Virus record (IMG/VR): IMGVR_UViG_2713897050_000002
Coordinates: 6,518 to 70,517 of that record
Strand: one strand, 5' to 3'
From: a virus
Lineage: Duplodnaviria > Caudoviricetes
Length of the DNA: 64,000 nucleotides
Below, one piece after another: positions 4,502-42,612 of the stretch (its first letter is position 1; each line of letters starts with the position of its first letter). Below the pieces are notes generated by a model. It did not search any database. It worked only from the letters and a program-made list of their open reading frames with translations, and had not been told where the DNA came from. The position numbers and the translations under genes were made by a program.

Positions 4502-5025
4502 TAGCGAGGTCCCATCAGTTGATGCAGGGACTCAGCCCACAAAGCTTCATCCGGGTCGACGGCGGGCGCAGCGGGGGCGGCAGGCTTTGGCTTGTCGCCA
4601 GGCCACAGTGCGCCGATCAACCACGGGGCAGGGTCCAGCCTGTTTCCGCCAGGAGGTGACCACACTGCACGGTGCACCTCGAAATGCAGGTGGGGTGCGA
4701 CACCGCCGTTACTATTACTGTCGGGGTTGATGCGGCCGATCCGTTGGCCAGCTTCGACGCGCTGGCCGACACTCACTTCGGGGATGATGTGCCCGTATAC
4801 GGTGAGTCCTGATCCATCCACGGCTGGGTGATCTACGTTGATCCACTTTCCGAAGCCTGATGCAGGACCGGAAGCGGTGACTGTGCCGCCTTGTGCCGCA
4901 TAGATCGGGAAACCGCCCGAGCCGCCATCACGCCCGAAATCAATGCCCCAATGAGTTGTCCCCCATCGAGCGCCGAAGCCTGATGTAATGTAGAAGCCTT
5001 TATCTACCGGTAAATATCGTGCCAT
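4501..5025 (-). CDS. lysA: Lysin A, M23 peptidase part
   Basis: HWGIDF (HxxxD), YGH and PHLHFEV zinc motifs. Confidence 0.92.
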   Translation of the reverse strand: MARYLPVDKGFYITSGFGARWGTTHWGIDFGRDGGSGGFPIYAAQGGTVTASGPASGFGKWINVDHPAVDGSGLTVYGHIIPEVSVGQRVEAGQRIGRINPDSNSNGGVAPHLHFEVHRAVWSPPGGNRLDPAPWLIGALWPGDKPKPAAPAAPAVDPDEALWAESLHQLMGPR

Positions 5026-5225
5026 TAGGCGACCTCGTCAATCAACTGAGCGATACGGATAGCCGCACCACGATCCAACACCGAATCAACCTGCAAACGA
5101 CCCTGCCGCGAATACTGGGCATGAATAGCAGTCACAAACTCCGGGGTCACACCACAAATCTCGGCCACATCGAGGACAGTCGGGTAATCCCCGAATTCCC
5201 ACTCCTCATCAATACAACGAATCAC
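5025..5225 (-). CDS. Small HTH / IF2_N-like protein
   Basis: PTVLDVAEICGVTPEFV...DSVLDRGAAIRIAQL; paralogue of 6861..7049; coupled on both sides. Confidence 0.5.
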   Translation of the reverse strand: MIRCIDEEWEFGDYPTVLDVAEICGVTPEFVTAIHAQYSRQGRLQVDSVLDRGAAIRIAQLIDEVA

Positions 5226-5548
5226 TCCGAAGCCTCAGACTTTCCACCAAACAAACGCGAAGAACCAGAAATGACACGAGCAGCAATTGAACCAGGCTCC
5301 GGAATAAACATAAACGTCAAATTCAGAAATTTCACAGCACCATCTAAACCATGCTGCCGAATATAGTTTTCAGCATGATCTTTCCGAACCAAATACATAG
5401 GCCAAGATGTGCGTGACTGCAAAACTGCAAGCTCATCAGGGGTCGCAATAACTACTTCAGTGGAACCGTCAGTATGCATAACCCACACCGCATCAGGGTG
5501 TCCATCCTTGCTTAACAGGTCCAGTAACTGATCCTGGGTAACCTTCAT
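5222..5548 (-). CDS. Hypothetical protein
   Basis: Start re-called at ATG 5548 (ATGA overlap). Confidence 0.6.
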   Translation of the reverse strand: MKVTQDQLLDLLSKDGHPDAVWVMHTDGSTEVVIATPDELAVLQSRTSWPMYLVRKDHAENYIRQHGLDGAVKFLNLTFMFIPEPGSIAARVISGSSRLFGGKSEASE

Positions 5549-5832
5549 TCCGCAACGGCCAATTCGTAACCCAAATCCCAAAGGGCCTCAGCATGAGTTC
5601 TATTTGGTGCGCGATGCAACACCCACATGCTTGGCTGCAAGGGGTTCTGTAGAATAGCGCCGGTTTTATCCGCCGCGAGCACAATCGCCTCATCAGGGCA
5701 GTTCGGAAGAGTAGCGACAGTAACAGCCACATAGACGACTTCGCTGGTCCCGTAAGGCTCCGACAACTCATACACGTGACTTGTCGGTTGGAGTGTTGAA
5801 AGATTTTCGATCGTTCGTGTCGCGGTGGGCAT
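5545..5832 (-). CDS. Hypothetical protein in the tail region
   Basis: AAGGA RBS, 95 aa, coupled to the next gene. Confidence 0.6.
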   Translation of the reverse strand: MPTATRTIENLSTLQPTSHVYELSEPYGTSEVVYVAVTVATLPNCPDEAIVLAADKTGAILQNPLQPSMWVLHRAPNRTHAEALWDLGYELAVAE

Positions 5833-5844
5833 CCGATTCCTTCG

Positions 5845-6864
5845 CTATTTATATGACGTAATCCAGCACGCACCTGGCGCGCCGTTGCCGCCATTGCCTG
5901 CAAATCCGAAAAAGCTGTATGAGCCGCCTCCGCCGCCTGGTGCCCCGGGGTTGCCGCCATTGCCGCCGCTGCCGCCATTGCCAGAGCCTGCGTTGCGGGC
6001 ACCACCGCCGCCACCAGTGCCGGGGTAAGGCTTCGTAGGGGGGGAAGGCGAGTTACCGTTACCTCCCGCCGCACCGCTAGTCCCTGCGCCCGCTGCCCCG
6101 CCATTAGCGAAGGCGTGACCAGTGCCCGCAGTCGGCTCATATGGGACTGTGAACCCGCCCGCCGACACGACATACCCGCCGTTGCCGCCACGAATATTCA
6201 GCGTCTTTGAACCAAAACCATGAGCTGTAGACAGAGCGCCACCCGCAGCAAGGAACGCGCCGAACGTACTATTGCCCCCACCCGTGCCCATTGTGTTGTC
6301 AGTCGTGGCACCAACGCCGCCATTCCCCAGCGCAACAGCCACAGTTGCCGGTAGGTCTGCATCGAAAAACTCAGCGTCATTCCATCCGCCTGACCATCCA
6401 CCCACCCCGCCGCCGTTAGCGCCGAACTGAGTGCCGTTGGATCGCCCTCCACCGCCTCCGCCGCCAATGATCTCCACGACGTGACGGGAAAATCCGGTCG
6501 GTTTCGTCCATGTCCCGTCCATCCCGAAGTAGGCGCGCTGCGCGGATGCGCCTCCGCCCGCGTCAACCTGGTCGATGCGGTTGTCTAGGCGCGGGACTTC
6601 GACGTTCTTCACTTGGTCGAGCCCGTTCCGAACTCCAAGTAGGCCGCCGATGAAGTCTGCGATTCCGCCAACGAAGCCGAACACGCCTTGCGTGAGAACG
6701 CCGAGGAAACCGCCACTCCCCCAAAGGTTGTCTTGGCCCTTCGCGAAGTTGTTGACTGTCGGGTTTTTGAGTTTGCCGCGGATGCCAGCTTCAGTCTCGT
6801 CCTGCCCATAACGGGTTCCGATCACATACGCGCCATCAGGGGCATTACCCCCAGGCGTAGTCAC
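5845..6864 (-). CDS. Glycine-rich minor tail protein
   Basis: MTTPGGNAPDGAY start; GTWTKP...IIGGGGGGG; many GGNGG repeats. Confidence 0.85.
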   Translation of the reverse strand: MTTPGGNAPDGAYVIGTRYGQDETEAGIRGKLKNPTVNNFAKGQDNLWGSGGFLGVLTQGVFGFVGGIADFIGGLLGVRNGLDQVKNVEVPRLDNRIDQVDAGGGASAQRAYFGMDGTWTKPTGFSRHVVEIIGGGGGGGRSNGTQFGANGGGVGGWSGGWNDAEFFDADLPATVAVALGNGGVGATTDNTMGTGGGNSTFGAFLAAGGALSTAHGFGSKTLNIRGGNGGYVVSAGGFTVPYEPTAGTGHAFANGGAAGAGTSGAAGGNGNSPSPPTKPYPGTGGGGGARNAGSGNGGSGGNGGNPGAPGGGGGSYSFFGFAGNGGNGAPGACWITSYK

Positions 6865-7049
6865 CGACCCGCCAAAATCTCGGCAACACGAATAGCGTCA
6901 GCCTGAGACACCAACGAATCCGACGACAATCCCGGCCGCGAATGAGAATCAAACACCGAAACCACCACCCCAACATCACACGCCAAAAACCCAGCCAACT
7001 CAGCAACAGTCATCACAGACGGAAACAACGTCACAGGCTCAGACATCAC
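6861..7049 (-). CDS. Small HTH / IF2_N-like protein
   Basis: MTVAELAGFLACDVGVVV...DSLVSQADAIRVAEIL; coupled on both sides. Confidence 0.5.
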   Translation of the reverse strand: MMSEPVTLFPSVMTVAELAGFLACDVGVVVSVFDSHSRPGLSSDSLVSQADAIRVAEILAGR

Positions 7050-7606
7050 AACCCCCGCACCGACGGATCATTCAAAATGCCTTGCCGTTTCTTGCCCATC
7101 ATTTCCGCCGCCAACACCCGCCTGCGTTCCTGATCAGAGGCGTGAACCAAATACCCCTTCACATACGACACCGTCGCATCAGCCGGATTGAACACAGGCG
7201 CGACAGTCACCGAAGCCTTATCGACCTCAACAACCGGCGCATCCTTCACAACACCGTGATAACGCAACTGCTCCGCAACAAACTCCTGCTCATGCCGCGT
7301 GTACTCCTCCATGTTCGGGAGTGCAACCGGCGCAACATCAGGCTCATCAATCCCAACCCACTCAGACGTATTATTGAGATAATGCTGCTGCCCGCGATGC
7401 GGAGTCCGCAACTTCTTCAACATCAACTCCGGATCATGCCGAAAACCCAAATCCTCCAAATGCTGAGACATCCACTCACGCGCCTCAGGATTAGGCGTAA
7501 ACTCCGTATCACCAGCCAACTTGATCGCAACAAACGCCCACTGATACTTCTGCTGAGGGTCATCCTGCAATTCACGAGAATTCTCAAACGTAGGTAGCCG
7601 AGCCAC
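7046..7606 (-). CDS. Minor tail protein (DUF2744-like)
   Basis: LPTFENS...WAFV...MSQHLEDLGFRHDPEL...WV; follows the large minor tail gene. Confidence 0.75.
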   Translation of the reverse strand: MARLPTFENSRELQDDPQQKYQWAFVAIKLAGDTEFTPNPEAREWMSQHLEDLGFRHDPELMLKKLRTPHRGQQHYLNNTSEWVGIDEPDVAPVALPNMEEYTRHEQEFVAEQLRYHGVVKDAPVVEVDKASVTVAPVFNPADATVSYVKGYLVHASDQERRRVLAAEMMGKKRQGILNDPSVRGL

Positions 7607-7633
7607 AACCAAACCTTCCAAAGATAAAGTTTG

Positions 7634-9277
7634 CTACACGAGACCCAACTCATTCAACATCGAAACGATGTCCTGAATTTCCTCGATAGCCTTAATGATC
7701 GGGTCTTGCGGCTCCCGCTGCCCAATCTGAATCGTCCATGTTGGAGAAGATGTGCGATCCCACTTCAACGTGAGTTCGGTAACCTGCTCCACGAAAATGC
7801 GGCCAGGCTCCATACCGAGAATGGTGAAGCCGACACGGTCCCCGATGAAGAAGTGTCCGTGCCCGTTCTGGCCTATCTGCCACGGCGCACCATCCGCTAA
7901 CGTTAGAGTGCAGCGGTTGACCTCGCGGGTCTGATACATGGCGGTACGCTGAGCCAATAGATAACTGAGCGTGTATGCGCGGTCGGCACCCTCACCCCAC
8001 TTCTCGTGGTAATGAGACCAGCCAAGCCTTTGCGCCCTTTGCGGACTCTTCCACTTACCGAACGCCAGAAACACATCCGTATACAGCGGCTTCAATACGG
8101 CGTCCGCCACACCACCCAAAGGCGGCACACCCGGAATCATCGCCGTCAAATCCCCGACCATCTGAATGCCGGCCGAAATCAACTCATTGACACCAGGCAT
8201 CGAATGCCCGCCCGCTACAGTGCCGACATCTGTTGCCGGTTTATGACTGAACTCAGACGACTGAATGCCCGTATGCTCAGACTCGCGATACACGACACCA
8301 GGCATCGACGGGATAGTCCCCCGGAAACCAGGCACCAAATACTCGCCCGGAACATTCGGGTCCGCGACCTGCTCGACATTCTCGGTCTTACCGTCGCCAC
8401 CAATATTGATCAGCTCACGCAGCAAACCGCCGAAGATCGAGCCACCAAACGAGGTGCCCGTGTTGAATGCGGACTTGTCGACCAGATCCCACACCAAACA
8501 CCCGTGACGCAGGTTAGCGCCAGGCCACGGAGGGGGATCGCCCCTCAGGTAGCGGCGGGCCTCCCACGACAACTGGCCGTCCGCGGCAACCTTCTTCGAC
8601 ACATCGTGCATGTACTTGAACCGGCCATGCACAATCGCCCCAACACTGCGATCAACCGTCGTTTCGGGCTTCACAACCTGCGACCACGTCGACTGATCAA
8701 AATTGAACCAGCCGCCAGGGTCCATCGGATTATCCGGCAACATCCACAAGCTCGATTCGAGCCGCATGATGTTGACCATCAACGTCGTCTTCAATGCCCA
8801 ACGCGCACGGCCAAAACACAACCAAGTCCGCGGAAACTGAATCTCAGCCGGCAAAAACGGATTGGCCCACACAATAATGTGCTTCAGATGCTCATAATCA
8901 TGTTTGAACAAGACCCGCACAACCTTTGTGCCGTCCTCGCTCTTGATGATCTTGAGTTCATCCATCATCCCCGACCAGCGGGCACCATCTTTTTCGACAG
9001 TGATAAACACATTCGTCGTAGGACGCAAATGAATATCCGCCAACCACCTCGACAGGTAGTAGTCCAGCGGCATCTCAATCTGCCCAACACCAGTCTCATT
9101 ATCCAAAAACTGGAACTCAGCAGAATTCTCACGATGACACTCACCGCGCAAATTCCAATCGCCATCCCACAACCGAATCAACGGTGGAAGAAGACGACGC
9201 TCCTTCTCCCGCTCCAAACGATCAGTAATAGCCTTGAACTCGGCATCAAAATCAATCGTTGCAACCGAAGCCATCAC
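7634..9277 (-). CDS. Minor tail protein (baseplate hub, Gp37-like)
   Basis: PLIRLWDGDWNLRG, WANPFLPAEIQFP, GHFFIGDRVG motifs. Confidence 0.9.
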   Translation of the reverse strand: MMASVATIDFDAEFKAITDRLEREKERRLLPPLIRLWDGDWNLRGECHRENSAEFQFLDNETGVGQIEMPLDYYLSRWLADIHLRPTTNVFITVEKDGARWSGMMDELKIIKSEDGTKVVRVLFKHDYEHLKHIIVWANPFLPAEIQFPRTWLCFGRARWALKTTLMVNIMRLESSLWMLPDNPMDPGGWFNFDQSTWSQVVKPETTVDRSVGAIVHGRFKYMHDVSKKVAADGQLSWEARRYLRGDPPPWPGANLRHGCLVWDLVDKSAFNTGTSFGGSIFGGLLRELINIGGDGKTENVEQVADPNVPGEYLVPGFRGTIPSMPGVVYRESEHTGIQSSEFSHKPATDVGTVAGGHSMPGVNELISAGIQMVGDLTAMIPGVPPLGGVADAVLKPLYTDVFLAFGKWKSPQRAQRLGWSHYHEKWGEGADRAYTLSYLLAQRTAMYQTREVNRCTLTLADGAPWQIGQNGHGHFFIGDRVGFTILGMEPGRIFVEQVTELTLKWDRTSSPTWTIQIGQREPQDPIIKAIEEIQDIVSMLNELGLV

Positions 9278-9287
9278 TCACCACCAC

Positions 9288-10184
9288 TCACAGAAGACCG
9301 AACGGCCGCGAAAACGGACGCTCACAACGAACCTGAATACCGACACCAGCCGGCGCACGAGACATAGCCACCGGCAAATCAACCGGAGCCGTATACGCAG
9401 GCAACGGATAACAGAACGTCACCCCACCCATACGCATGTAGTAAGCAGAATCAGTAGACGACACACACTGGCCACCAATAGCCTGCTCATCCGTATCAAC
9501 ACGAACATGCTCATTCGTCTGCATCAACGGCATCACAATCTGGCGGGCCGCATCAATCTGCGCCCGCTCAAACCTGTCATCACCAAACGAAAAATCCGGC
9601 AATGTCGGCTTACCTGGTGCCTGAATCATCCACTTCAACCACACCGGGTTATCAGTCGGATTAGACACCGTCACAGTGCCCGTAGTGGTAGACCCCGAAG
9701 ACGTATCAACAGTGGAAACCCACTCATCAACTACCTCGGTGTCATACCACCACGGATCGCCGGCAACAAGCGTCAGCGTGACCGTTTCCATCTGCGTCTG
9801 ATTCGGATCAAAGCGCGGCTTGAACTCAGGCTGCTCCCGCAAACGCACCTTCAAATAGCGGCGCGAATCCTCAGTCTCAATCCACAACTTCGAATCCTTG
9901 GTGTAAGACCAAAGTTTCCGAAACTCCGAATCATTCTCCTGCCACGACGACCCATTAGAGTTGTCAATGAACACACCGAACACCACGACACGTTCAAGAT
10001 TGCGGAGCCCACCGAAATCGGAGCCGATCTGAAACGCATGCGAATTTCTGATAGTCTCAACAGGAGCGTCGTAAATTCCCTCGACATCAGTCAAAAGGAA
10101 TGCGCCCATGTCACCTTCGCCATCCCCGGCAAGGGTACATTCGCCCCCGTTGAAACCTTCAACAGATACTTGAGTTACAGGCAC
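9288..10184 (-). CDS. Minor tail protein (distal tail protein-like)
   Basis: First gene after the tape measure; RYLKVRL, AGDPWW, SNPTD, LPDFSF motifs. Confidence 0.88.
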   Translation of the reverse strand: MPVTQVSVEGFNGGECTLAGDGEGDMGAFLLTDVEGIYDAPVETIRNSHAFQIGSDFGGLRNLERVVVFGVFIDNSNGSSWQENDSEFRKLWSYTKDSKLWIETEDSRRYLKVRLREQPEFKPRFDPNQTQMETVTLTLVAGDPWWYDTEVVDEWVSTVDTSSGSTTTGTVTVSNPTDNPVWLKWMIQAPGKPTLPDFSFGDDRFERAQIDAARQIVMPLMQTNEHVRVDTDEQAIGGQCVSSTDSAYYMRMGGVTFCYPLPAYTAPVDLPVAMSRAPAGVGIQVRCERPFSRPFGLL

Positions 10185-10187
10185 GAA

Positions 10188-13100
10188 TCACCTCCGGGAA
10201 TAAGTTAGGGACTGCCGCGCCTGCCGAACACGATCTTCACGCATAGCCGCAGCAATAGAATCAGTCTGATAAGTGACATTCGGTCGCGAAGCGTTCTCCG
10301 CCAAACGATCAACCTGCTTCGTGAACTCACTCATATCGAGCGAACTCCCACCATTGGGTTTGTTCACCGAGTTGCGAATATCAGCTAGCTCCTTGAACAT
10401 GTCACTGTTCTGCTTGCCCGTGTACACATGCTCGGTATCGCCCGACAAATTGAGGGCAGCCATACCGTTCAAGAGTGGCCCGCCAGAATCACGCAACACC
10501 GTAGGAATCTTCACCTGATCACCCATCCGCCTCAACCACTCATTCGGATCAAACGGTGCATCAGGATTCGCACCCGCGGCCTTACCCAACTCGTCAACAA
10601 ACGGCTGACCAAACAACTGCTTCAACCCCGTAGCAGACTCGCCACCAGGAATATCAGCAGGCTTATAGTTCGCAACCCCAGTAATCAGCGCACCAATCGC
10701 ACCCATATCACTCGAAATCCCGAACACACCCAACGCATCATTCAACTGACCCGTCACGAACGACTTCGCAACATTGCCAATCAAATCGACCGGGTCAGAC
10801 GCGCCACCAGAAGAACCACCCGAAGAACCCGACTTGGAACTACCGCCCTCAGCCTGCGTCTTACGCTCAGCGTCCAACGCATTCTTCGCGCGCTGCAACG
10901 ACAAATCGGCATCCAACTTGTCAGACTCAGTCGCGCCGTCTTTCGCATACGCTTCATTGCGTGCCAGACGGGCCTTCTCCACAGCCAGCTCGGCAGACTT
11001 CAAACTGATCTGATCGTCAGTCATGTTGCCGGTCAACTCAGGAGCATCAGGTGCCGGCGCATCCGACTTGTCACCCTTAACCATGTTCGGGGTGTCCCGC
11101 TTGGCTTCTAGGTCGCGAACCTTCTGCTCAGCCTTCTCGACCTTCTTGTCAGCCTGCTCACGATCAGCCTGCGTCTTCTTGTCGTTGACGTAAGCTGCAT
11201 CGCGGTCCTCTTGCGCCTGCCGGATAGCGATCCGCGCCGAGTCCAACGCGAGCTTGTCCTTCTCAGCCCACTTAGAGTTAGCGGCACCCTCAAAGCCTGT
11301 CTTGCCATCGGCAACCTCGGCACCATCAGAACCATAGGTAGAGCCGCGAGACTCCGCGGCAGACAAGATAGCGTCAGCCTCCGCAGCCTTAGCCGCATAA
11401 TTAGAGCCATCCGCATACCCGGACTGCTGAACACGCTGAGCCGCAGCCGCAGCATCCATGTTCTCGTAATCAAACTTGGCAAGCTCCTCATAGAACATGC
11501 CCGCAGCCCGAGTCGGATTCATCCGATCCTCAGCCGTACCCCAAGCGCCATTATCGCGCTGCTGAAACACGCCCACAGAATCCCGGTCACCGTATTCAAG
11601 GTTCTGCAAATCAGACTCTGCAAGCCCAGTCATCAACGCAGCCTTTATACCGTTAGCGCTAATCCCGCGACGTTTACCCTCATCGATAATGTCCTGAGCA
11701 ATCTGATCCCGCTCAGACAAAGGAGCCTGCGAAGCTACACCAACACTCCCGGGAGCCCTATCCAACGACGGCGGAGCAGACATAGCCCAATGCACATGAT
11801 TCGTATGATCCCCAGCACCGTCATAAAACGACGAATCAACGCGAGCGCCATTCTTGATCTCCTGCCCCGCAAATGCCGGATCATCGTAAATCAGCTCCAA
11901 CGAATCCGGGTAAGCCTGTGAGATCGCTTCTGCCAACGACAACTGCTCTGGGGTATTCCCGCTACCATTAGAGAAATCCGCGGCGTTACCAGTCGAATGG
12001 TAGCCATTATCGGTGTTGCGCAGCCCTGAAGTCATCGACAGACCAGGCACATACTTGTTGACCCAGTCCGTCATGCCATCGACAACGCCGCCACCCTGAA
12101 AACCTGGCAACTTAGGGAACGTCCCAGCATTGATCATCGCCAACTCGCGGTCATACTGTTCGGACGATCCGCGATTGATGATCCACTCGCCAGCATCCAC
12201 ATTCGCGATAGGCTTACCCGCGGATGTAACACCCAAAATGCCGTCAACAACACCAGTACCCGGACCAGTAGTCGGCAGCCGACCACCCGTCGCCTTGTCG
12301 GGGATCAGCACCGGAGCTACCGGGCCTTGCACACCATTACGGTTGAAGTCCTTCTGCGCCTTCGCAGTCAACGCAGTGTCAATCGTCACCGTCATCGTGC
12401 GATCGCGACTAGCATTTTCCGCAGCAGTATCAATCGCGCGAATCGCATCCAACGCCTCTTGATTAGGTGCAGTAATGCGCACAATGCCAGGCTTACCGTT
12501 AATATCGGTTTCGACCTTGCCGCCCAACTCCTCAATGCGGCGGCGCGCATCCTCATCCAACATTTTCACCGGGATATCAATGGGCTCGTCGATACCCTTG
12601 AGAAGTCCGCCGATAACTTCAAGCTGCAACCCAACAGTGTCAGCGCCCGCAAGAGACGCCAACATGATAATGTCCTTCGGCAACAATCCCTCTGCCGCCG
12701 CCATCGCCTCAACCTGCGTCTTCGTCAATCCGTACTGACTACCAAGATTGATGAGTGAGGCCTCATTGGCGGCAATCGCGTTACGCGCCTCAGCTTGCGC
12801 CTCAGGCAGAGTTTTGCCCTGCGCCAAAGCCGCCGTGATAGTCGCATTCGTAACATTGATCGTCTCGTCGCGCAGGCCAGTCAACTGGTCGCGCAGCTTT
12901 GACCCATTCTCGAGTGCCGTATTGACCGAACCATTGTCAGCGTTGACAAGTTCATCGCCCTTACCCTTGGACGGGTCCACACTCGCGGGCTCTGTATCGC
13001 CGATCTCGCGGATCGTATCGTTGTACTTCTGCACCGCATCCGAAAGCGGAATCTCTTTACCCGACAGCACGTCGAGAGCCGTCTTCAACGCGTTAACACG

Positions 13101-15152
13101 CTCATCAGCTGTCGAAGCCTCATCACCCAGAACGCCAACCGCAGTCGACAAATCATAAAATCCTGGTGACGTATTTTTAGCGACAGCCTCGGCCTGCTTA
13201 ACTTCTTCACGCATCTCACGCATGTGGTTGGCTGCTTGAAGCCCGCCCTCACCCGAAGCCTGCAACACCGAAGTGAACGCCCGGAACTCTCCATCCGAGG
13301 CAGTCAACTTAGCCGCCAACTCTTCAGTCGACAGCCCAGTCCGATCGAATGCCGCCTTCACATTCTCGGCTTCGCCAGCGACCTTCTCCTGCGCATTCAA
13401 AGCATCGGTACCAGCCTCAGCGACACCCGAGAACCAGCCGGCAATATCTTGACCAGCAGCCTTGAAAATTGCCATCGAACCGGGCGCAGTAGACGCCAAC
13501 TGATTCTGCTTCTCAATGAACGTGTCGAACTGGACACCAATCGCACCAGTAACACCCTCAGATATCGCACCCTGTGAAGCCTGAAAAGCCTTAGCGACAT
13601 CACGTTGCGCGGTCGCCATCTTCGCCGAAGAACCAGTCAACAAATCCTGCTGCTTCTCAGCCTTATTGAACTCGCCATTCAGTGCATAGATTGCAGCACC
13701 CGCGGCAACAATGCCGATCATCCACGGACCACCGAAAGCAGTCAGCATCGAACCCGCAGCCGAAGCCATACGAGCACCAGCGACCGCAGTCGCAGCACCA
13801 ACCCTCGACATCGAATTACCAGCAAGGTTCGCGGCAATAACCTGCGCCGCCATCGCCTGCGTAAACCGCAGAGACGCTGCCGAAACCGAAGCGAAACCTG
13901 CCAAAATCGATGACCCCAACCCCGTCACCTTAAGCGCGATCAAAGCGCCAGTAGCAGCCAAGATCGGCGTGGGCAAAGAAGCTACCGCCTTCGCGACAGA
14001 ACCAATCACGCCTATGACCGGCACAACTGCAGAACCGACAGTCTTAAACCCGTCGACAATCCCCGAGGAAGCATTAGTCAGCTTCTCTGCGCCATCACGC
14101 GCAAAGTTCTCCATCGGGCCATCGATCAAGTCGTACAGTTCAAGCGCCAAAGTCTCCGCAGAGTTTTGGATCGCAGCCATAGCACCCGGCAAGCCCTTAG
14201 ACTTCGCAGCCGCGACCTCAGCCGCAGCACCCTGACGCTCAATAGCCGTATGCATCTTGTCGTAACCAACCTGGCCCTGCTCCGCAGCAACACCAGCCAA
14301 ACGCATAGCATCCGAACCGAACAAGGTCGCCGTAGCAGCCTGATACAACTCAGGCGTCATGCTTGCCGCGGCAGTATCCAACTGTCCAAACAGTGACGAC
14401 ATGCCAACGAACTGGCCCTGCGCGTCATACACAGTCAAACCCAGCTCTTTAATAGCCGCCTGAGCCGGCTTGCCCTGATCCGTCAACGCCAACAGCGCAG
14501 ACTTCAACAGCGTGCCGGCGTCAGAGCCTGCGATACCGGCATTCGAGAGAACACCCAACGTTGCCGCGGTATCCTCAATCGTCAAACCGAACTGATTTGC
14601 AACTGCACCAGACTGCTGCAGGCCAGCAGAAATATCGGTGATCTCAGCAGAGGAAGCATTAGCGGCATTCGCCAACACATCCGCTGCAGTCGCCGCATAA
14701 TCCGCAGACAAACCAAACGCCTGCAACGCCTGAGACTGAATAGTCGCAGCCGACGCCGCATCAATACCGGCAGCAGCAGCCAACTGCAGAGTGCCCTTAG
14801 CGCCATCCATCGCCTGCTGGACAGTGAAACCGCCCTTAGCAAGCTCAGTCATCGCCGCAGCAGCATCCGTAGCCGACGTATTCGACAAACTAATGTCGTT
14901 GCCAAGCTCTTTAGCGCGCGCAGACACAGCAGCCATCTCGGACGCTGTAGCTGACGACACCGACTGCATAGTGTTCAAGGTGTTCGTCAGGTCATTGCCG
15001 AGACTGACAATCTCGCTGAACGCAGTGGCCGCACCGAATGAAACACCAAACGCGGCACCGATCTTAAGCGCGCCATTTAGTCCGCGATTAAGGGTGGAGT
15101 TGAAGTTGTCCAGGTTAGGGACAACGTCGATATCAATTCTTCCGCCCGCGAT
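10188..15152 (-). CDS. Tape measure protein with C-terminal peptidoglycan-hydrolase motifs
   Basis: About 1650 aa Ala-rich; TP901-type core (ELAKGG, GSDAGTLLKS); GYHSTGNAADF..HTNHVH peptidase-like and AESDLQN..DSVGVFQQR transglycosylase-like motifs; start is ATC 15152 or GTG 15161. Confidence 0.95.
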   Translation of the reverse strand: MAGGRIDIDVVPNLDNFNSTLNRGLNGALKIGAAFGVSFGAATAFSEIVSLGNDLTNTLNTMQSVSSATASEMAAVSARAKELGNDISLSNTSATDAAAAMTELAKGGFTVQQAMDGAKGTLQLAAAAGIDAASAATIQSQALQAFGLSADYAATAADVLANAANASSAEITDISAGLQQSGAVANQFGLTIEDTAATLGVLSNAGIAGSDAGTLLKSALLALTDQGKPAQAAIKELGLTVYDAQGQFVGMSSLFGQLDTAAASMTPELYQAATATLFGSDAMRLAGVAAEQGQVGYDKMHTAIERQGAAAEVAAAKSKGLPGAMAAIQNSAETLALELYDLIDGPMENFARDGAEKLTNASSGIVDGFKTVGSAVVPVIGVIGSVAKAVASLPTPILAATGALIALKVTGLGSSILAGFASVSAASLRFTQAMAAQVIAANLAGNSMSRVGAATAVAGARMASAAGSMLTAFGGPWMIGIVAAGAAIYALNGEFNKAEKQQDLLTGSSAKMATAQRDVAKAFQASQGAISEGVTGAIGVQFDTFIEKQNQLASTAPGSMAIFKAAGQDIAGWFSGVAEAGTDALNAQEKVAGEAENVKAAFDRTGLSTEELAAKLTASDGEFRAFTSVLQASGEGGLQAANHMREMREEVKQAEAVAKNTSPGFYDLSTAVGVLGDEASTADERVNALKTALDVLSGKEIPLSDAVQKYNDTIREIGDTEPASVDPSKGKGDELVNADNGSVNTALENGSKLRDQLTGLRDETINVTNATITAALAQGKTLPEAQAEARNAIAANEASLINLGSQYGLTKTQVEAMAAAEGLLPKDIIMLASLAGADTVGLQLEVIGGLLKGIDEPIDIPVKMLDEDARRRIEELGGKVETDINGKPGIVRITAPNQEALDAIRAIDTAAENASRDRTMTVTIDTALTAKAQKDFNRNGVQGPVAPVLIPDKATGGRLPTTGPGTGVVDGILGVTSAGKPIANVDAGEWIINRGSSEQYDRELAMINAGTFPKLPGFQGGGVVDGMTDWVNKYVPGLSMTSGLRNTDNGYHSTGNAADFSNGSGNTPEQLSLAEAISQAYPDSLELIYDDPAFAGQEIKNGARVDSSFYDGAGDHTNHVHWAMSAPPSLDRAPGSVGVASQAPLSERDQIAQDIIDEGKRRGISANGIKAALMTGLAESDLQNLEYGDRDSVGVFQQRDNGAWGTAEDRMNPTRAAGMFYEELAKFDYENMDAAAAAQRVQQSGYADGSNYAAKAAEADAILSAAESRGSTYGSDGAEVADGKTGFEGAANSKWAEKDKLALDSARIAIRQAQEDRDAAYVNDKKTQADREQADKKVEKAEQKVRDLEAKRDTPNMVKGDKSDAPAPDAPELTGNMTDDQISLKSAELAVEKARLARNEAYAKDGATESDKLDADLSLQRAKNALDAERKTQAEGGSSKSGSSGGSSGGASDPVDLIGNVAKSFVTGQLNDALGVFGISSDMGAIGALITGVANYKPADIPGGESATGLKQLFGQPFVDELGKAAGANPDAPFDPNEWLRRMGDQVKIPTVLRDSGGPLLNGMAALNLSGDTEHVYTGKQNSDMFKELADIRNSVNKPNGGSSLDMSEFTKQVDRLAENASRPNVTYQTDSIAAAMREDRVRQARQSLTYSRR

Positions 15153-15293
15153 ATGGACCACCGCCTACTATTTAAGGAACCTGAAAGCCCCCAACATGGA
15201 GGTGACGCGGCTCAACCATCTCTATGAACTTTGAAAAGAACGTGATACCGTCACCGCAACCAAACAAGCGCGTGACAGGTAAAGGTAAATACA

Positions 15294-15596
15294 ATGAGAA
15301 AGTTCATGTTCGCGGCAGCACTCGCAGCAATCGCACTGCTATCCGCGTGCTCGACTGAACCGCCTGCACCGACCGCGCAAGAGCAAGCCTGCGAAACGTT
15401 CAAAGCAGTCACGCCAGGATTCTTTGAGTCAGACTGGGCTGTCGAGACGCTGCAAGACTCGGCCGCGACGAGCACCGACCGCGTCGAAGCAATGAAAACC
15501 ATGCTCGACATCCGCGCCGGCAAAGGCCGCACCGAGCCCTACACATGCGACGAACCCGCCTTCGACCGCTACCTCACAGAACAAGGCATCGAATAG
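15294..15596 (+). CDS. Lipoprotein (moron on the opposite strand)
   Basis: Signal peptide MRKFMFAAALAAIALLSAC with lipobox LSAC. Confidence 0.8.
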   Translation: MRKFMFAAALAAIALLSACSTEPPAPTAQEQACETFKAVTPGFFESDWAVETLQDSAATSTDRVEAMKTMLDIRAGKGRTEPYTCDEPAFDRYLTEQGIE

Positions 15597-16438
15597 CTAG
15601 AACCCCAACAAGGCAGCCAAATCGCGCGGCTTCACCTTCTCCAACTTGCCGCCACCAGCCAACTCAGGCTTACGGGCAGGCTTGAACTCGGCCACCAAAC
15701 GCTCATACTGAGCCTTCCGCGCCGCAGCCACATCATCAGGACGCAACGCCACCGGATACAAGAGAGGCGCAGGCGGAGTCTTATGCCCGTCACGCCTACG
15801 CTTCTCCGCATCCGCCTTACGCTGAGCCTCCGTCTTCGGATCAGCCGTCCACGACGCATACTCCGAATTCAAAAAGAAATCGAAGCGATCCAAAAACATA
15901 GCCATGTTCTCGGCCTCCAACGACCACGCAGCCGGCAACCTTTGCAGAAGCTCACTCACGTCGCGCCAGTCACGGTCACGCAACACTTCACGCAGATTCA
16001 GCCCGTAGTGAGACTGGAATCCTGCGTATGCTGCGCCCCAGCCATCCCTTGAGTGTAGGCAGGCAAAGGCGCTAAGAGTTTCCCCTCAAACAAACCAGAC
16101 AACTCGATGATCTTGTTGAGTGCAGCGGCAGCATGCGTAGCGTTGAGCCCGCCGATCTTGCCCCACACTTCCGCGCCTTTATCGGTAACCATGTTCAACA
16201 TGTCGAGATAGTTCTTAGAACCAGTCAACTTGAAGAACTCGGCTGCCTCTTCGCCTGTGTAGGTGCGGCGAATCTCGAAATCCGCGCCGAAAAGGGTAAC
16301 GGGAAGTGGCGGCTCAGAACCAACAGCCAACACATCAGCAATGTTGTAGCGCTCAACTGTCTCGGGGACGGCCTCCGCCGAAGGAACAACCTTTGCGGGC
16401 TGAACCTTCGGCGTCGACTTACGTGCGGTGCCTGGCAT
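15597..16438 (-). CDS. Tail assembly chaperone, long form via -1 frameshift
   Basis: -1 frame open from GGGGAAA (16079-16085) as GETLSAF...AGFQSHYGLNLREVLRDRDW; TGA immediately upstream in that frame. Confidence 0.85.
15998..16438 (-). CDS. Tail assembly chaperone, short form
   Basis: Between major tail and tape measure; contains the slippery site. Confidence 0.85.
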   Translation of the reverse strand: MPGTARKSTPKVQPAKVVPSAEAVPETVERYNIADVLAVGSEPPLPVTLFGADFEIRRTYTGEEAAEFFKLTGSKNYLDMLNMVTDKGAEVWGKIGGLNATHAAAALNKIIELSGLFEGKLLAPLPAYTQGMAGAQHTQDSSLTTG

Positions 16439-16470
16439 GATGTTGATGAACTCCTAGCTAGGGTTGTGAA

Positions 16471-17034
16471 TCAGGCGGTCAGCGGGGACCAGTTCGTGAT
16501 GGGGATGATGGGCGACAGGGCGCGAACCTCGAAGTCGAAGCCATCCAGGGTTTCGCCACCGAACACGCGCGGGGGCGGAGTCGTCAAAGTGACGCGATCG
16601 CAGTAGAAACCGGCCGCATCATCCTCATCGGTGAGACGGAAGATCAGTGCGAAGTCCTCATCATCGCCGGGCTCCCACTTGTACACCTCGGTAGCGCCGA
16701 CCTGGGTGATAGCGCCACCCTGCAGTGCAGTCAGGACAGTGGCCTTGGAGTAGTCGCTGGCACGGAAGGTGATGTTTTCCTCCAGGACACCCTTGATGAC
16801 CTTGTATGGTGCGCCGCGGCGGTTCCACACGTTCAGGTTGGTGATGTCGCGGGAAGGATTGACCTCAAACCCGGTCTCGATACCACCGTAGGCATCCCAG
16901 GTGACGCCAGGCGCAGAGCCTGTAACGACAGTGGGTGCGAAGGGGTCGGCGGGGAGTGCAGTACCGGCTGGGGCGCGGAAAACGTCGCCATCCAACCAAA
17001 CAAAAGCCTTGCTGGGGTCCGCGTAAGTGCTCAC
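16471..17034 (-). CDS. Major tail protein
   Basis: DGDVFRAPAGTALP...WDAYGGIETGF; strong AGGAGG RBS. Confidence 0.88.
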   Translation of the reverse strand: MSTYADPSKAFVWLDGDVFRAPAGTALPADPFAPTVVTGSAPGVTWDAYGGIETGFEVNPSRDITNLNVWNRRGAPYKVIKGVLEENITFRASDYSKATVLTALQGGAITQVGATEVYKWEPGDDEDFALIFRLTDEDDAAGFYCDRVTLTTPPPRVFGGETLDGFDFEVRALSPIIPITNWSPLTA

Positions 17035-17140
17035 GGGTTAACCTCCTGGATAGGCTCACACACTGTGAGCAAAAATGGGAAACCCCACCCCTAGATGCGC
17101 CAAGCAAGCACCAGGGATGGGGCAGAAAACGAAAACCCCT

Positions 17141-17602
17141 TTAAGGGGTCTGAGCGGGCTTCTCCCGCAACTTCATTTCGACAGTGATAAACGCACGGTA
17201 GATAGGAATGTCGCTACCACGCTTCATCTCAGGGTCCGGCACGACCGGTCCGGTCTTCCAATCGGCAGACCAAACAGACTCGCGGAACTTCACGTTTCTC
17301 GCCCGACCCAACAACTGACCGGCAAGCGCGGCAACGTCCCACGCAATCTCGTCGGGGTCCGTCGTACCACCCATCACCGAAATTGGAGGCACCCACGCAT
17401 TAATGACCAGAAGAGGTCTACGTAGCATCGGATCAACACCGACATTACCAACCGCGCGAATAGTCACACACGGACGCGAAATCACATCAGGCAACTCGCG
17501 AGTAGTAACCGAAGACGCCGGAACCAAACTCGTGAAAGCCTCATTAGCCAGCAAGAATTCACGGATAGCACCAGGTGCATACGGTATCGGAGCATTAGCC
17601 AT
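17141..17602 (-). CDS. Tail terminator
   Basis: Position before the major tail gene; 153 aa. Confidence 0.7.
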   Translation of the reverse strand: MANAPIPYAPGAIREFLLANEAFTSLVPASSVTTRELPDVISRPCVTIRAVGNVGVDPMLRRPLLVINAWVPPISVMGGTTDPDEIAWDVAALAGQLLGRARNVKFRESVWSADWKTGPVVPDPEMKRGSDIPIYRAFITVEMKLREKPAQTP

Positions 17603-17615
17603 CAGTTACCGCCTA

Positions 17616-18056
17616 TCATCGACCACGATTGAAGTAGTCGCGTTGCGCTGGAGTTACCATTCGAACGTTGCCCGCGGCAGTCGTGTACGGAACCAAGTTG
17701 GAACCACCACCCCCGCCTGAACCGCTCGAACCAGCGGAACCGTCAGGCATCCAGCCCGTGTACTTACCGGGCGCGTTCCTCGCCGCATCAGTCAATGCAG
17801 CGTGAGCGGGAGTATCAATCGTCCCGTACTCTTTCCAAATCGCGTTATCGTCAGTGTCGACAATGGAAACGTTCATTCCTTCAACGAGAACTGAGATGCC
17901 GTCGCGGTAGTCACCGGTCAAGATAGGCGCATTAGAGCGGGCTTCAGCGGCCACGTCGTGTGCGATGCTTTCTCGATCACTGAATGATAGGTACCGTGCC
18001 TCACTGCGTGCCTGCCCAGGAAACAACGTGAACCTACTACTAGAACGGCCAGCCAT
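17616..18056 (-). CDS. HK97 gp10-like neck / tail component
   Basis: APILTGDYRDGI and KEYGT..TPAHAAL motifs. Confidence 0.75.
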   Translation of the reverse strand: MAGRSSSRFTLFPGQARSEARYLSFSDRESIAHDVAAEARSNAPILTGDYRDGISVLVEGMNVSIVDTDDNAIWKEYGTIDTPAHAALTDAARNAPGKYTGWMPDGSAGSSGSGGGGGSNLVPYTTAAGNVRMVTPAQRDYFNRGR

Positions 18057-18238
18057 TACGGCTTAACATCCACCTTAGAAACCTCAGGCGTCTTCACAGA
18101 CGGGCCATCAACAGGCTTCACAACCGGAGCAGACTTAGCCTCTTTACGCGACAACTTTTCATGACGCTGATGAGTCTTAGACCCCTCAACCGTCTGAACA
18201 GTATTGCCATCAACCTTGAATTCAACAATTTCAGCCAT
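18056..18238 (-). CDS. Small hypothetical structural-region protein
   Basis: TAATG coupled on both sides. Confidence 0.6.
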   Translation of the reverse strand: MAEIVEFKVDGNTVQTVEGSKTHQRHEKLSRKEAKSAPVVKPVDGPSVKTPEVSKVDVKP

Positions 18239-18621
18239 TAGGCACCTTCTTTCACATCTGATGCCGCCCGCACGATCGCGGCAATATAATTTGGTTTACG
18301 AGAACCCCGCGCCGGCCTTCGCACGCGCGGTACACCGACAACCTGATAGACAATGCCGTCACCGTCACGGAACCGGTCACGCTCCCGCGGATGCGGCGTC
18401 AACCCTGGATCGAGCAGCAGCATGTACGACGACGTGACATGCCCGTCCATGAACTCGGTGTTACCTGAGTCGACAGACGACGATGCAAGCTGGCGTTGCT
18501 GCAACAGTCCAGTCCACGGAACCTCCGTAGGGGCTACTGGAATCCGGTTACCGGACGAAGGATCAACCGTCGCATCACCGTCAACCAACAGCACCCACGG
18601 TTCAGGTAGCCGCGCCGACAT
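18238..18621 (-). CDS. Head-to-tail stopper
   Basis: RDRFRDGDGIVYQVVGVP motif; position. Confidence 0.75.
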   Translation of the reverse strand: MSARLPEPWVLLVDGDATVDPSSGNRIPVAPTEVPWTGLLQQRQLASSSVDSGNTEFMDGHVTSSYMLLLDPGLTPHPRERDRFRDGDGIVYQVVGVPRVRRPARGSRKPNYIAAIVRAASDVKEGA

Positions 18622-19013
18622 CAGCCGGGAACAATCGAAAAAGCGCCACCCGCCGACGAACCCAAAGTCGGTGACAGTGAAGCCAACTCTTCCGCCGTGA
18701 AAAACAGGAGGGAAGGGTTAGCGTCCGAATACACCGTTGTGATCTCTGGGAACTGTTCGGACTTGATGCGCAATCCGATACGAACCGCGTCCCATGCCCG
18801 CACCACAGCGGAGACCGTGACGCCTTTTACCAACGCCGCAGACAGCGAACCATCCAACATCGCAGCATCAATATCCGGCCGGTGAGCACGCAACAGGGCC
18901 GACGCATACGCGATGAACGAATCCACCTGCACACGATCAGAGTCGGCTAGAGTTTCCCCTAGCCGACCTTCCACATCGTCTATCCAGATCAGCGGGTCAA
19001 GCGGCGCTGTCAT
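18621..19013 (-). CDS. Head-to-tail adaptor
   Basis: DDVEGRLG...ASALLR...LFFTAEELASL; start re-called at ATG 19013. Confidence 0.8.
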   Translation of the reverse strand: MTAPLDPLIWIDDVEGRLGETLADSDRVQVDSFIAYASALLRAHRPDIDAAMLDGSLSAALVKGVTVSAVVRAWDAVRIGLRIKSEQFPEITTVYSDANPSLLFFTAEELASLSPTLGSSAGGAFSIVPG

Positions 19014-19209
19014 TACCCTTAGCCGGACGGCCAACACGCGGAGCAGTGACAGTCTCTTCAACCTTGGCGATCAGACCGCCCTCTTCGAGCCGATCCAAGT
19101 CTTCCTGCGACACATCCGTAGGGACCGCGCGGGGAGCCAGCAGTTGCTCGATCTTGCCGTTCAGATGGGTCACCTGAATCAGCGGAGCCTTAACGTAATA
19201 CGAAGCCAT
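18997..19209 (-). CDS. Small hypothetical protein after capsid
   Basis: AAGGAG RBS; LDRLEEGGLI motif. Confidence 0.65.
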   Translation of the reverse strand: MASYYVKAPLIQVTHLNGKIEQLLAPRAVPTDVSQEDLDRLEEGGLIAKVEETVTAPRVGRPAKGNDSAA

Positions 19210-19226
19210 GATTGTGGAACTCCTTA

Positions 19227-20138
19227 TCAGGCGGTGATGCCGGTGATCTTGATGGCAGCACCAGGCTCGGCGACGAACGGAACGACGTTGCGGCGCGCAC
19301 GGATGCGGTACCGGTCATTCAGCTCTTCACGGATGGTCTTGGTTTCGACCACATCGCCCGTGTAGCCCTGGCCGAGGGTTTCCTTGCCGATACCGCCGAG
19401 AGCGTTGGTATCGATGAGCCATGCGCCAGCAGACGGCAGGTTGTTCGTCGGCAACAGGGTGAGGCCGGCAATCGACAGGAACGAGCCGGTGTAGACAGTG
19501 TTGCCATTGTCTTCGCGGGCCATCGTCTGAGTCAGCTTGGTATCCGACGCCAAGAGGGCGTGAGTGGCGTCATCGACAACGAGGACGTTGGGCTCGTAGC
19601 CCATGTTCAACGCGGTGACCTTCGCCTTAGCAAGCATGATGTCGCGCAGAATCTTGGCGTTCGCATCATCAGTCCAGACAGCCGAAGCCGCCTGAGTCTG
19701 AGTGACAGCCGAAGCGATCAGCGACAGTGCCGTAGCATCCATCTGCTTCACAGCAGAGTTGACAAGCTTCTTGAAAGCTTCCTCGACACTGTTCATCGCG
19801 GAACGCTTGATCGCCTCATCGGTGATCTCGGCGTCCTGGCCCCACTTGACGACTGCAACGTTCTGCAGCACACCATTGGAGATGCCAGTCAGCGGGTACT
19901 CGCCGCCGGGAGTGATCGACTCAGGAGTGCGATCGGCATACAGCGGCTCAAGCGACGAGAACGCGATAGCGCCACCCGAAGCCTCAACACGCTTACTCAG
20001 AAGAATGTCGGAGATGAAACGCTGATTAGCGATCTCATCAATGCGCTTAGCGACAAGCGTAGGCGACTGAAGGAAACGGTTTGCGGTAACGGAATCGCCA
20101 GAGTAGGTGGGCGGTCCCGCGGGATACGTGAAAGACGT
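19227..20138 (-). CDS. Major capsid protein (303 aa if initiated at ACG 20138)
   Basis: Frame is open from TAA at 20151-20153: (T)SFTYPAGPPTYSGDSVTANRFLQSPTLV...PGGEYP...KWG..ITDEAIKR; the ORF track truncates it at GTG 19871. Confidence 0.9.
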   Translation of the reverse strand, partial: TSFTYPAGPPTYSGDSVTANRFLQSPTLVAKRIDEIANQRFISDILLSKRVEASGGAIAFSSLEPLYADRTPESITPGGEYPLTGISNGVLQNVAVVKWGQDAEITDEAIKRSAMNSVEEAFKKLVNSAVKQMDATALSLIASAVTQTQAASAVWTDDANAKILRDIMLAKAKVTALNMGYEPNVLVVDDATHALLASDTKLTQTMAREDNGNTVYTGSFLSIAGLTLLPTNNLPSAGAWLIDTNALGGIGKETLGQGYTGDVVETKTIREELNDRYRIRARRNVVPFVAEPGAAIKITGITA

Positions 20139-20190
20139 AGTAATCAGTCCTTAGACATGGAGTGGACATGCTCCGCATGCCCCTCAAATG

Positions 20191-20220
20191 AGAAAAGCCC
20201 CCACAAAGGAGGGCTTAAAA
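20191..20220 (-). terminator. Intrinsic terminator-like hairpin upstream of capsid
   Basis: AAGCCC...GGGCTT stem followed by TTCT on the minus strand. Confidence 0.6.
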
Positions 20221-35925: not shown

Positions 35926-35997
35926 GCACAGTGGAGGGAATCGAACACCCGACACGCGGTTTTGGAGACCGCTGCTCTACCACTGAGCTACGCCGAT
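35926..35997 (-). tRNA. tRNA-Trp(CCA), degenerate or chimeric
   Basis: Intact D arm GCTC/GAGC and anticodon arm GCGGT-CTCCAAA-ACCGC, TTCGATT loop; three mismatches in the acceptor stem and one in the T stem. Confidence 0.6.
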
Positions 35998-36113
35998 AGA
36001 AGCCAGCCCCGCGCGGTGATCGAAGTAAGGGATACCCGAGAGTAGATCCTTGACCACCATTGCGCGGGACTGGTTAACAGCTCGTAGAGCGATTCCTAGG
36101 ACACTCCACGGCG

Positions 36114-36187
36114 TGCCCGCTGAGAGAGTCGAACTCTCAACCTTCGGTACCTAAAACCGACGCCTCTGCCAATTGGGCTAAGCGGGC
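36114..36187 (-). tRNA. tRNA-Leu(TAG) with short variable loop
   Basis: Acceptor GCCCGCT/AGCGGGC, anticodon arm TCGGT-TTTAGGT-ACCGA, T arm GAGAG-TTCGACT-CTCTC, discriminator A. Confidence 0.9.
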
Positions 36188-42027: not shown

Positions 42028-42612
42028 TCAACCACCCACAACCACCGCTTCCGCAACAGACTTAGGCAACTCATCATTCTCAACCAACACCTTGAAACCA
42101 GTACGCGCCGCAGGCAAATACACGATCACACCCTCAGGCCGCATAAACCCTCGTGCAGCCTCAGAACCGTTACGCACCAAATCCGCAACCACCGCATCAA
42201 TCTTCGCCGTATCGAAAGCGCCCCGATGCAACACAGGCACCACTTCGAGCCTGTCGACGCCGGCTACATCCTCCGGCTTCCAGCGTTCACTGTTGAACAG
42301 GGAGAACCGTTTGTCCCCGTTCACGAGCCCGTAGGCGCGTTGGATTCCACTGCCCCACCATTCGCCGTAGTGGTAGCCGGGACCAAGCGTGTCCGCTAGT
42401 GCTCCGGCGTTACCCCACACCCAGTTGGCGAACCCTGCGTTGTCGTTGTCTGGGGTGATGACGCGGTTGCGGGATTGTGCCCCGACTTCGCTGGCGTCTT
42501 CGTTGATGTAGATGCACGCGTTAGTGCCATCAAGTTTCTCCGTAATCACCATCCCCCGCCGAAGTCTTGCAGTTTTCGGCCAAGCCTTGAACTCAAACTC
42601 TGATGTACCCAA
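42028..42612 (-). CDS. RNA ligase (Rnl2-type nucleotidyltransferase domain)
   Basis: TEKLDGTNA (motif I), QSRNR, YGEWWGSGIQ, PEGVIV, FK. Confidence 0.88.
   Translation of the reverse strand: MGTSEFEFKAWPKTARLRRGMVITEKLDGTNACIYINEDASEVGAQSRNRVITPDNDNAGFANWVWGNAGALADTLGPGYHYGEWWGSGIQRAYGLVNGDKRFSLFNSERWKPEDVAGVDRLEVVPVLHRGAFDTAKIDAVVADLVRNGSEAARGFMRPEGVIVYLPAARTGFKVLVENDELPKSVAEAVVVGG

Follow-up and report, generated by a model that had tools for sequence, protein, structure and literature searches.

The major capsid protein gene in a 64,000-nucleotide stretch of provirus DNA (positions 6,518 to 70,517 of IMG/VR record IMGVR_UViG_2713897050_000002; hereafter the window) has no canonical start codon, the absence is conserved in its relatives, and the N-terminal part of the protein is under purifying selection. 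Near-cognate initiation of this gene is probably conserved and functional. The identity of the start codon and the yield of protein from it we infer from the comparison of sequences, and we tentatively favour a start at the near-cognate codon that occupies the ancestral methionine position.

The window covers nearly all of the 70.5-kb record and represents a temperate siphophage with relatives in genomes labelled Rhodococcus fascians, the source name on members of the 90% cluster of the capsid protein; the nearest named phages are Gordonia phages, and these are distant. Its late operon extends from 26000 to 3600 on the minus strand. The head part comprises the terminase, portal, SPP1 gp7-like head protein, scaffold, cement protein, major capsid protein and head-tail genes. 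It is followed by the tail part (tail tube, chaperones, tape measure, distal tail protein and ReqiPepy6 gp37-like protein) and, at the end, by genes for a gene-29-like protein, a glycine-rich tail protein, an M23 peptidase and a glycoside hydrolase. Every other late gene of the window has an open frame that begins in the ordinary way, and the Shine-Dalgarno spacers are mostly 6-8 nucleotides (nt) long.

The capsid gene lacks a canonical start codon

The features of the capsid gene and its start region are as follows.

19227-20138, minus strand: major capsid protein gene (HK97-type), read from the methionine-aligned ACG, 303 codons plus stop; based on Pfam, phrog_1650 and the ratio of nonsynonymous to synonymous substitution rates (dN/dS)
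20136-20138, minus strand: ACG at the start position of the family, placed by the phrog_1650 alignment and the starts of relatives
20148-20152, minus strand: Shine-Dalgarno-like AAGGA, part of TAAGGACTGATT, 9 nt before the ACG

The capsid frame is open from stop to stop over 307 codons (19227-20150, minus strand). Its first ATG, GTG or TTG is the GTG at 19871, which is codon 90, and none occurs between the upstream TAA and that point. The protein matches Pfam Phage_capsid_4 (PF25209) at 2.4e-23 and phrog_1650 at 9.9e-84, with residues 7-306 on profile positions 3-299 of 300, a full-length match to the HK97-type major capsid family. Position 1 of the phrog_1650 profile falls on the ACG at 20138-20136. 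The cement gene shares the frame of the capsid gene, but read-through from it was ruled out because a TGA and a TAA lie between the two.

Nine IMG/VR relatives were read at the capsid start codon. Eight of them (41-60% identity) carry ATG at this codon or at the one before it, and the remaining one (L002; 93% amino acid identity) has ATT. Overall, the relatives with ATG at this place span 38-60% identity. ACG is kept in L018, a metagenome scaffold with 94% amino acid and 81-88% DNA identity, where the preceding codon is ACC. Contigs from three runs of three studies (X5, X7 and X10) have the same ACC, with no change of the ACG among the differences listed. In a fourth run (X2), the contig ends show CCC ATA AGT at this position by our own reading at low depth, with no aligned cover at 20142-20153; the sequences from all four runs are contigs. 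The states seen in the lineage are ACG, ATT and ATA, each one base from ATG, and no ATG was seen among the differences listed. Meanwhile, the protein sequences of two lineages at 82-83% identity (P0001 and P0002) have M at the aligned place. No difference in the leader TAAGGACTGATT separates the window from L018, L002 or the X2 contig ends.

Gene calls point the same way. None of the 15 listed members of the 90% capsid cluster (19 in all) has the 302-303 amino acids expected of a canonical start at this codon; 11 are truncated calls (213-258 amino acids) and four begin at the CTG- or ATT-aligned codon. Parts of the stretch are present in 20 runs of 12 studies from varied habitats, which excludes an error of a single assembly. 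Few close relatives with DNA came to light: 92 pattern matches in genome contigs led to one distant locus, 401 genomes of one order gave five distant matches, and the exact 24-nt leader pattern was found in IMG/VR only in the contig of L002. In other Rhodococcus genomes, capsid homologs at 55-64% identity (P0039, P0042, P0058, P0041 and P0093) are called 10-32 residues short at the N-terminus, and by these short calls further lineages may lack a canonical capsid start.

Comparative evidence indicates that the N-terminus is translated. Over codons 2-89, upstream of the first canonical codon, dN/dS is 0.17 between the window and L018, 0.083 between the window and L002, and 0.082 between L018 and L002; the N-terminus is judged to be translated because of these values. 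Over the rest of the gene it is 0.03-0.07, with synonymous divergence (dS) of 0.2 to 1.0. The ACG is kept in L018 despite a dS of 0.21-0.42 from the window. Moreover, the serine codon after the start position is TCT, AGC or AGT, so that the residue is kept across codon families, and together with the low dN/dS this makes a pseudogene unlikely. The capsid gene therefore combines the absence of a canonical in-frame start with a Shine-Dalgarno sequence at a working distance and with selection before codon 90. An earlier note on this DNA had pointed to a near-cognate ACG where the capsid methionine is expected, behind a well-spaced ribosome-binding site; this is borne out, and the arrangement persists in diverged relatives under purifying selection.

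Possible initiation at the methionine-aligned codon

In the reading that we tentatively favour, the capsid gene is intact and functional and has lost its canonical start codon. Ribosomes would most likely bind AAGGA and start at the ancestral methionine position, which is ACG in the window and ATT or ATA in relatives. The initiator tRNA would read this near-cognate codon with one mismatch and with low intrinsic efficiency; a dedicated phage factor would not be required, and the yield of capsid would be set by the amount of message and by the leader. Such a start would explain why every codon state is a neighbour of ATG. In addition, the 9-nt spacer between AAGGA and ACG fits the usual range of this phage, whereas the conserved ATT is only 3 nt away. 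In E. coli, ACG and ATC are reported to give full-length protein with N-terminal methionine at low yield (10.1101/063800).

Several observations weigh against this reading. In the E. coli data, ACG initiates at 0.1-1% of AUG (10.1101/063800), which sits badly with a protein more abundant in the virion than any other. TAAGGACTGATT does not vary, and this extends to its six bases CTGATT, although they would be mere spacer under an ACG start; the three bases after them do vary (ACT, ACC, CAT and CCC). The change from ACT to ACC in L018 is synonymous in the capsid frame, as expected of a translated codon, and some public gene calls, known here from protein calls alone, start at the CTG- or ATT-aligned codon. 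Additionally, codon changes in an upstream open reading frame (ORF) that lies in another frame are five synonymous versus two nonsynonymous by our count, which hints that this other frame is translated just upstream of the capsid start.

According to 10.1101/063800, infC and pcnB, both with AUU, are the only confirmed non-canonical starts of E. coli. Like the capsid gene, these are natural genes with a near-cognate start behind a normal Shine-Dalgarno sequence. Unlike them, the capsid protein is needed in very large amounts, and most relatives have ACG, of the 0.1-1% class, rather than AUU, of the 1-2% class (10.1101/063800). Conserved loss of the canonical start on a major capsid gene is an unusual variant of non-canonical initiation, and no description of it was found among the records listed by our literature search. 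The point of the infC case is autoregulation dependent on initiation factor IF3, which has no obvious analogue in this phage.

A widespread lineage of temperate actinophages has thus done without a canonical start, over substantial divergence, for the protein that is most abundant in its virion, a situation for which confirmed natural cases in bacteria are very few. If ACG is used, either near-cognate initiation is more productive in this host than the E. coli data suggest or something boosts it. The public Rhodococcus fascians annotations P0122 and P0123 represent the same capsid protein (94-100% identity), and a non-standard start or a truncation was needed to annotate it. Public annotations of this protein disagree, and none begins at the methionine-aligned ACG. 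Because gene callers give lengths of 213 to 306 amino acids for one capsid protein, the annotation of prophages of this kind is unreliable.

Alternative readings: other starts, frameshifting or decay

A different start just upstream is the alternative that survives best, although we consider it fairly unlikely.

20142-20147, minus strand: conserved CTG ATT, alternative start candidates; public annotations P0122 'MTTSF' and P0123 'MITTSF'

Here the capsid would begin at one of two invariant codons, ATT (20144-20142; two codons upstream) or CTG (20147-20145; three codons upstream), and the old methionine codon would be an ordinary, poorly constrained threonine or isoleucine codon. CTG ATT does not change between the window and L018, L002 or the X2 contig ends, and the codon next to it varies, as such a start predicts; the synonymous ACT to ACC change fits translation from either codon. 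An ATT or CTG start is annotated in P0122 (304 amino acids) and P0123 (306 amino acids), and AUU is the non-canonical start confirmed in E. coli infC and pcnB (10.1101/063800). The spacing is unfavourable, however: AAGGA lies 3 nt from ATT and 0 nt from CTG. Moreover, a start at either codon leaves two facts unexplained, namely the constant one-base distance of the old start codon from ATG and the presence there of ATA, a rare codon that makes up 9 of the 272 isoleucine codons in the late genes. An ATT or CTG start is likewise non-canonical, so the puzzle of low yield would stay.

The upstream ORF offers a second alternative, in which the capsid carries a short N-terminal extension.

20047-20178, minus strand: upstream ORF in another frame, with ATG at 20178 and 20169; overlaps the capsid start, the capsid frame being one base further on
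20160-20185, minus strand: conserved leader hairpin enclosing the two ATGs of the upstream ORF, supported by conservation only

Because the upstream ORF is one base off the capsid frame, a +1 shift would be needed to reach the capsid. Ribosomes would begin at the ATG at 20169 and shift at CUA-AGG (UUA-AGG in L002 and X2), which we regard as improbable. GAGGGG stands 10 nt before this ATG. The ATGs and first codons of the upstream ORF are kept in three DNA relatives, where the changes are mostly synonymous (TCC/TCT, CCA/CCT, CTA/TTA, TCC/TCG and TCA/TCC), and the codons at the proposed site are rare in the late genes (AGG 3.4, CTA 3.3 and TTA 1.1 per 1000 codons). The phage also encodes a tRNA with anticodon UAG that reads CUA, but UUA, found in L002 and X2, should not be read by it. 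Furthermore, a +1 slip would bring the P-site tRNA from CUA or UUA onto UAA, where it would mismatch at the middle position and re-pair at only two of three positions. AAGGA is more simply a Shine-Dalgarno sequence, and thus a ribosome-binding site, and the two ATGs of the upstream ORF both lie inside the conserved hairpin. In L002, the upstream ORF ends at a TAG that overlaps the ATT.

Programmed +1 frameshifting is known from prfB, from the capsid and tail genes of Listeria phage PSA, and from CUU-AGG-C of yeast Ty1. The upstream ORF resembles these cases in having a rare AGG after a leucine codon and in the +1 step needed for the capsid frame. The known phage frameshifts extend the C-terminus of part of the protein, whereas here all of the capsid would depend on the shift, and the P-site codon re-pairs poorly. 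To our knowledge, no capsid is made wholly by way of a 5' frameshift, which also weighs against this alternative. An extended capsid is nevertheless encoded somewhere: in P0135, of a lineage at 81%, the upstream ORF is fused in frame to the capsid. This 313-amino-acid protein has the N-terminus MSTPCLRTDYYVF, which corresponds to the upstream ORF of the window read into the capsid, and its sister calls in the same lineage are cut short at 275 amino acids. Either a natural indel has supplied an ATG in P0135 or the assembly is in error.

The leader as a whole has a z-score of -1.86 for its minimum free energy. None of the 23 pairs in a three-sequence consensus fold shows a compensatory change, so the leader structure is supported by conservation only. 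Upstream of it lies one further structure.

20195-20216, minus strand: terminator-like hairpin in the gap between the cement protein gene and the capsid leader

Terminator-like hairpins (17133-17151 and 20195-20216, minus strand) stand directly before the tail tube and capsid genes, which encode the two most abundant virion proteins.

It is quite improbable that the prophage lineage is defective, with the start codon lost, the capsid no longer made, and the conservation reflecting recent decay or recombination. A lost start codon is a common first lesion, and G402, the closest relative, whose record contains L002, has a gp37-like tail gene that is split in two and has a TGA inside it (G402:C1:17720-19403). 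This copy may be damaged, or the metagenome assembly may be faulty. Decay is hard to reconcile with dN/dS of 0.03-0.17 over the whole capsid gene, also in the stretch upstream of its first canonical codon, with dS reaching about 1. The non-canonical state is common to lineages that differ at 12-19% of bases and come from 12 studies of varied habitats, and the ordinary starts of all other late genes of the window likewise argue against a defective prophage.

The start of the tape measure gene

The earlier note had listed the tape measure gene as a second virion gene with a near-cognate codon, ATC, where methionine is expected.

10188-15161, minus strand: tape measure protein gene, read from an in-frame GTG; Pfam PhageMin_Tail at 2.3e-46
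15150-15152, minus strand: ATC aligned with the ATG or GTG start of relatives, placed by alignment to their tape measure genes
15158-15165, minus strand: Shine-Dalgarno-like GGCGGTGG, which contains the in-frame GTG, 5 nt before the ATC; GGAGGTGG in L033 and L034

The alignment upholds the position of this codon. In the alignment with Gordonia phage Meyran, the ATC at 15152 falls on the annotated ATG, which stands 5 nt after GGAGGTG, and among 11 IMG/VR loci the aligned place is GTG in five and ATG in three. No canonical codon is found there in the window (ATC), in L027 on the same contig as L002 (CTG), in L033 and L034 (ATC), or in L018 (ATA). What does not hold is the absence of a canonical start. 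All of these loci carry an in-frame GTG three codons upstream (15161 in the window; spacer 5-6 nt), and for this reason the tape measure gene is not established as lacking a canonical start; where canonical loci carry a GTG in the Shine-Dalgarno stretch, it is out of frame. Unlike the capsid gene, the tape measure gene therefore does have a canonical in-frame start.

The tape measure genes of Meyran and the IMG/VR relatives share with the window the N-terminus AGG[R/I]ID... and the GGAGGTG Shine-Dalgarno sequence. Their start codon, ATG or GTG, comes 4-5 nt behind this sequence, whereas the clade of the window has ATC, ATA or CTG with a 6-nt spacer and the GTG in frame. By this comparison, the tape measure start looks to have migrated to the GTG. 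Translation would probably begin at this GTG, which lies in frame within the former Shine-Dalgarno stretch, or else weakly at the ATC, and either start would suit a protein needed in few copies. Weak initiation at the ATC is possible: the GTG at 15161 has no Shine-Dalgarno sequence of its own, whereas the ATC has a good one.

Between the tail chaperone and tape measure genes, a gene on the opposite strand (15294-15596, plus) encodes a 100-amino-acid lipoprotein-like protein with a signal peptide and, after it, LLSAC; the gene is kept in L002. It looks like a moron, and by its orientation late transcription must read through it antisense. The stretch just before the tape measure gene (15165-15290, minus strand) differs less between the window and L002 than the coding DNA on its flanks does. 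An inverted repeat within it, GGTGACGGTATCAC, may serve the moron or the tail genes as an operator or promoter.

Two small ORFs and the proposed gating of late genes

Two small ORFs near the end of the late operon had been taken in the earlier note for IF2_N-like proteins, that is, proteins resembling the N-terminal sub-domains of initiation factor IF2.

6861-7049, minus strand: small ORF A, 62 amino acids from the GTG at 7049 (the ATG at 7046 has better spacing); paralog of ORF B
5025-5225, minus strand: small ORF B, 66 amino acids, predicted from a structure model to be a small domain of mainly three helices

Both ORFs exist and are paralogs (33% identity, E 1e-7), and each overlaps the start of the next gene, that of the glycine-rich tail protein for ORF A and that of the M23 peptidase for ORF B. 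Pfam gave no family for either at E<=10, including IF2_N (PF04760), with the limit that HMMER filters drop most Pfam matches above about 0.1; the homologs P0146 and P0147 have no Pfam family either. No match to ORF A or B was found in PHROG, and an Atlas search returned no family (best score 0.87). A word-based search found eight relatives of the small ORFs, all close, and a full HMMER search of 1.84 billion representatives gave six hits at E<=0.001, two of which are giant repeat proteins matched on short stretches. A sequence-profile search of the PDB yielded no IF2 and only weak helix-turn-helix (HTH) matches (E 0.3-0.9).

The model of ORF A was unusable for a fold search (predicted local distance difference test, pLDDT, 63.9). 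That of ORF B, built from eight sequences, reached pLDDT 80.7, with three main helices after a short N-terminal helix. In Foldseek, its best match was a Pseudomonas IF2 chain and its second an isolated IF2 N2 sub-domain (E 0.022, below Foldseek's threshold). With a second aligner, seven of the nine best matches were IF2 N-subdomains (Z 5.7-7.2). An independent wide search that did not use Foldseek placed a plasmid Par DNA-binding domain at Z 6.3, IF2 at 6.2, Rv1264N at 5.4 and RacA at 5.1, the only four chains to reach Z 5. MerR-type DNA-binding domains match the fold at Z 5.0-6.3, and folds as small as this often give Z values under 8. The IF2 N-terminal sub-domains (Pfam IF2_N; PDB 7UIU and 4B3X) are of similar length and mainly three helices, and superpose on the ORF B model at Z 6.2-7.2, the root-mean-square deviation being 1.7-3.8 over 54-61 residues at 15-21% identity. 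Unlike them, the small ORFs are free-standing and have no sequence-family match, and the fold match is tied with that to the MerR-type domains of pSK1 Par and RacA. Judged from the model, the resemblance is real at the level of fold but does not discriminate and implies no family membership; the two ORFs would encode paralogous small helical HTH-like proteins.

The earlier note had combined these observations into a system in which near-cognate starts silence capsid and tape measure until the free-standing IF2_N-like proteins relax start-codon fidelity late in infection. The capsid start on which it builds is real and conserved, and IF2 N-subdomains dominate the second-aligner matches of ORF B. 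According to PMC9192638, the N2 sub-domain of Pseudomonas IF2 forms a bundle of three helices and binds h16 on the 30S shoulder, where a free copy could conceivably act. In that account, however, N2 anchors IF2 on h16 and is not the codon-checking part (PMC9192638), and control of initiation fidelity is ascribed to IF3 and IF1 (PMC3130014). No IF2_N match appeared in Pfam at E<=10 and no IF2 among the PDB sequence-profile matches, a Par domain scored as high as IF2 in the wide search, the family is tiny, and a usable GTG lies in frame in the tape measure gene. Moreover, the small ORFs lie downstream of the capsid and tail genes in the same late operon and so cannot act before that operon is expressed. 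Nothing links them to initiation, and among 20 further ORFs of the window Pfam matched replication, recombination and integrase genes and no translation factor.

G402, the one close relative examined, has both small ORFs and an odd capsid start, which, as a single close relative, reflects shared descent. In contrast, G403 has an ATC-type tape measure gene with a neighbouring gp37-like gene and no homolog of the small ORFs. A translational gate is also unneeded, since repression of late transcription already silences late genes in the lysogen.

The last component of that system was a hairpin masking the ribosome-binding site of a tail gene.

10165-10224, minus strand: start region of the distal tail gene, candidate masking hairpin; the minimum-free-energy fold pairs GGAGG and the GTG (-20.3 kcal/mol, z -1.48 against 100 shuffles, not exceptional)

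This hairpin does not rise above chance: none of the 23 start regions folded reaches z -2, and the lowest scores belong to the gene that starts at 17602 (-1.65), to the distal tail gene at 10184 (-1.48) and to the tail tube gene at 17034 (-1.41).

More generally, selection might keep ATG off the capsid start so that output hangs on a late fidelity switch, exerted by a phage product (possibly the IF2_N-like small helical proteins on the 30S shoulder) or by a change of host IF3 or IF2 at induction. We hold this to be very improbable; if true, it would be the first phage-encoded control of start-codon stringency. Gating by the two small ORFs themselves deserves the least credence of all.

Other genes of the window

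The remainder of the window encodes a DnaB helicase, beta clamp, ERF, RNA ligase (42028-42696), ThyX, two tRNAs and an integrase. The tRNA with anticodon UAG (36113-36187, minus strand; leucine by anticodon) is 74 nt long and lacks the long variable arm usual for bacterial tRNA-Leu. The second is a tRNA-Trp(CCA)-like gene (35929-35995, minus strand) with acceptor-stem mismatches, found with Rfam at 40 bits and missed by ARAGORN. The two were considered as initiators and rejected, since they are not initiator-like (anticodons UAG and CCA; the UAG tRNA has a G1:C72 pair). The ThyX (Thy1) gene (56440-58149, minus strand) is interrupted by an intein splicing domain.

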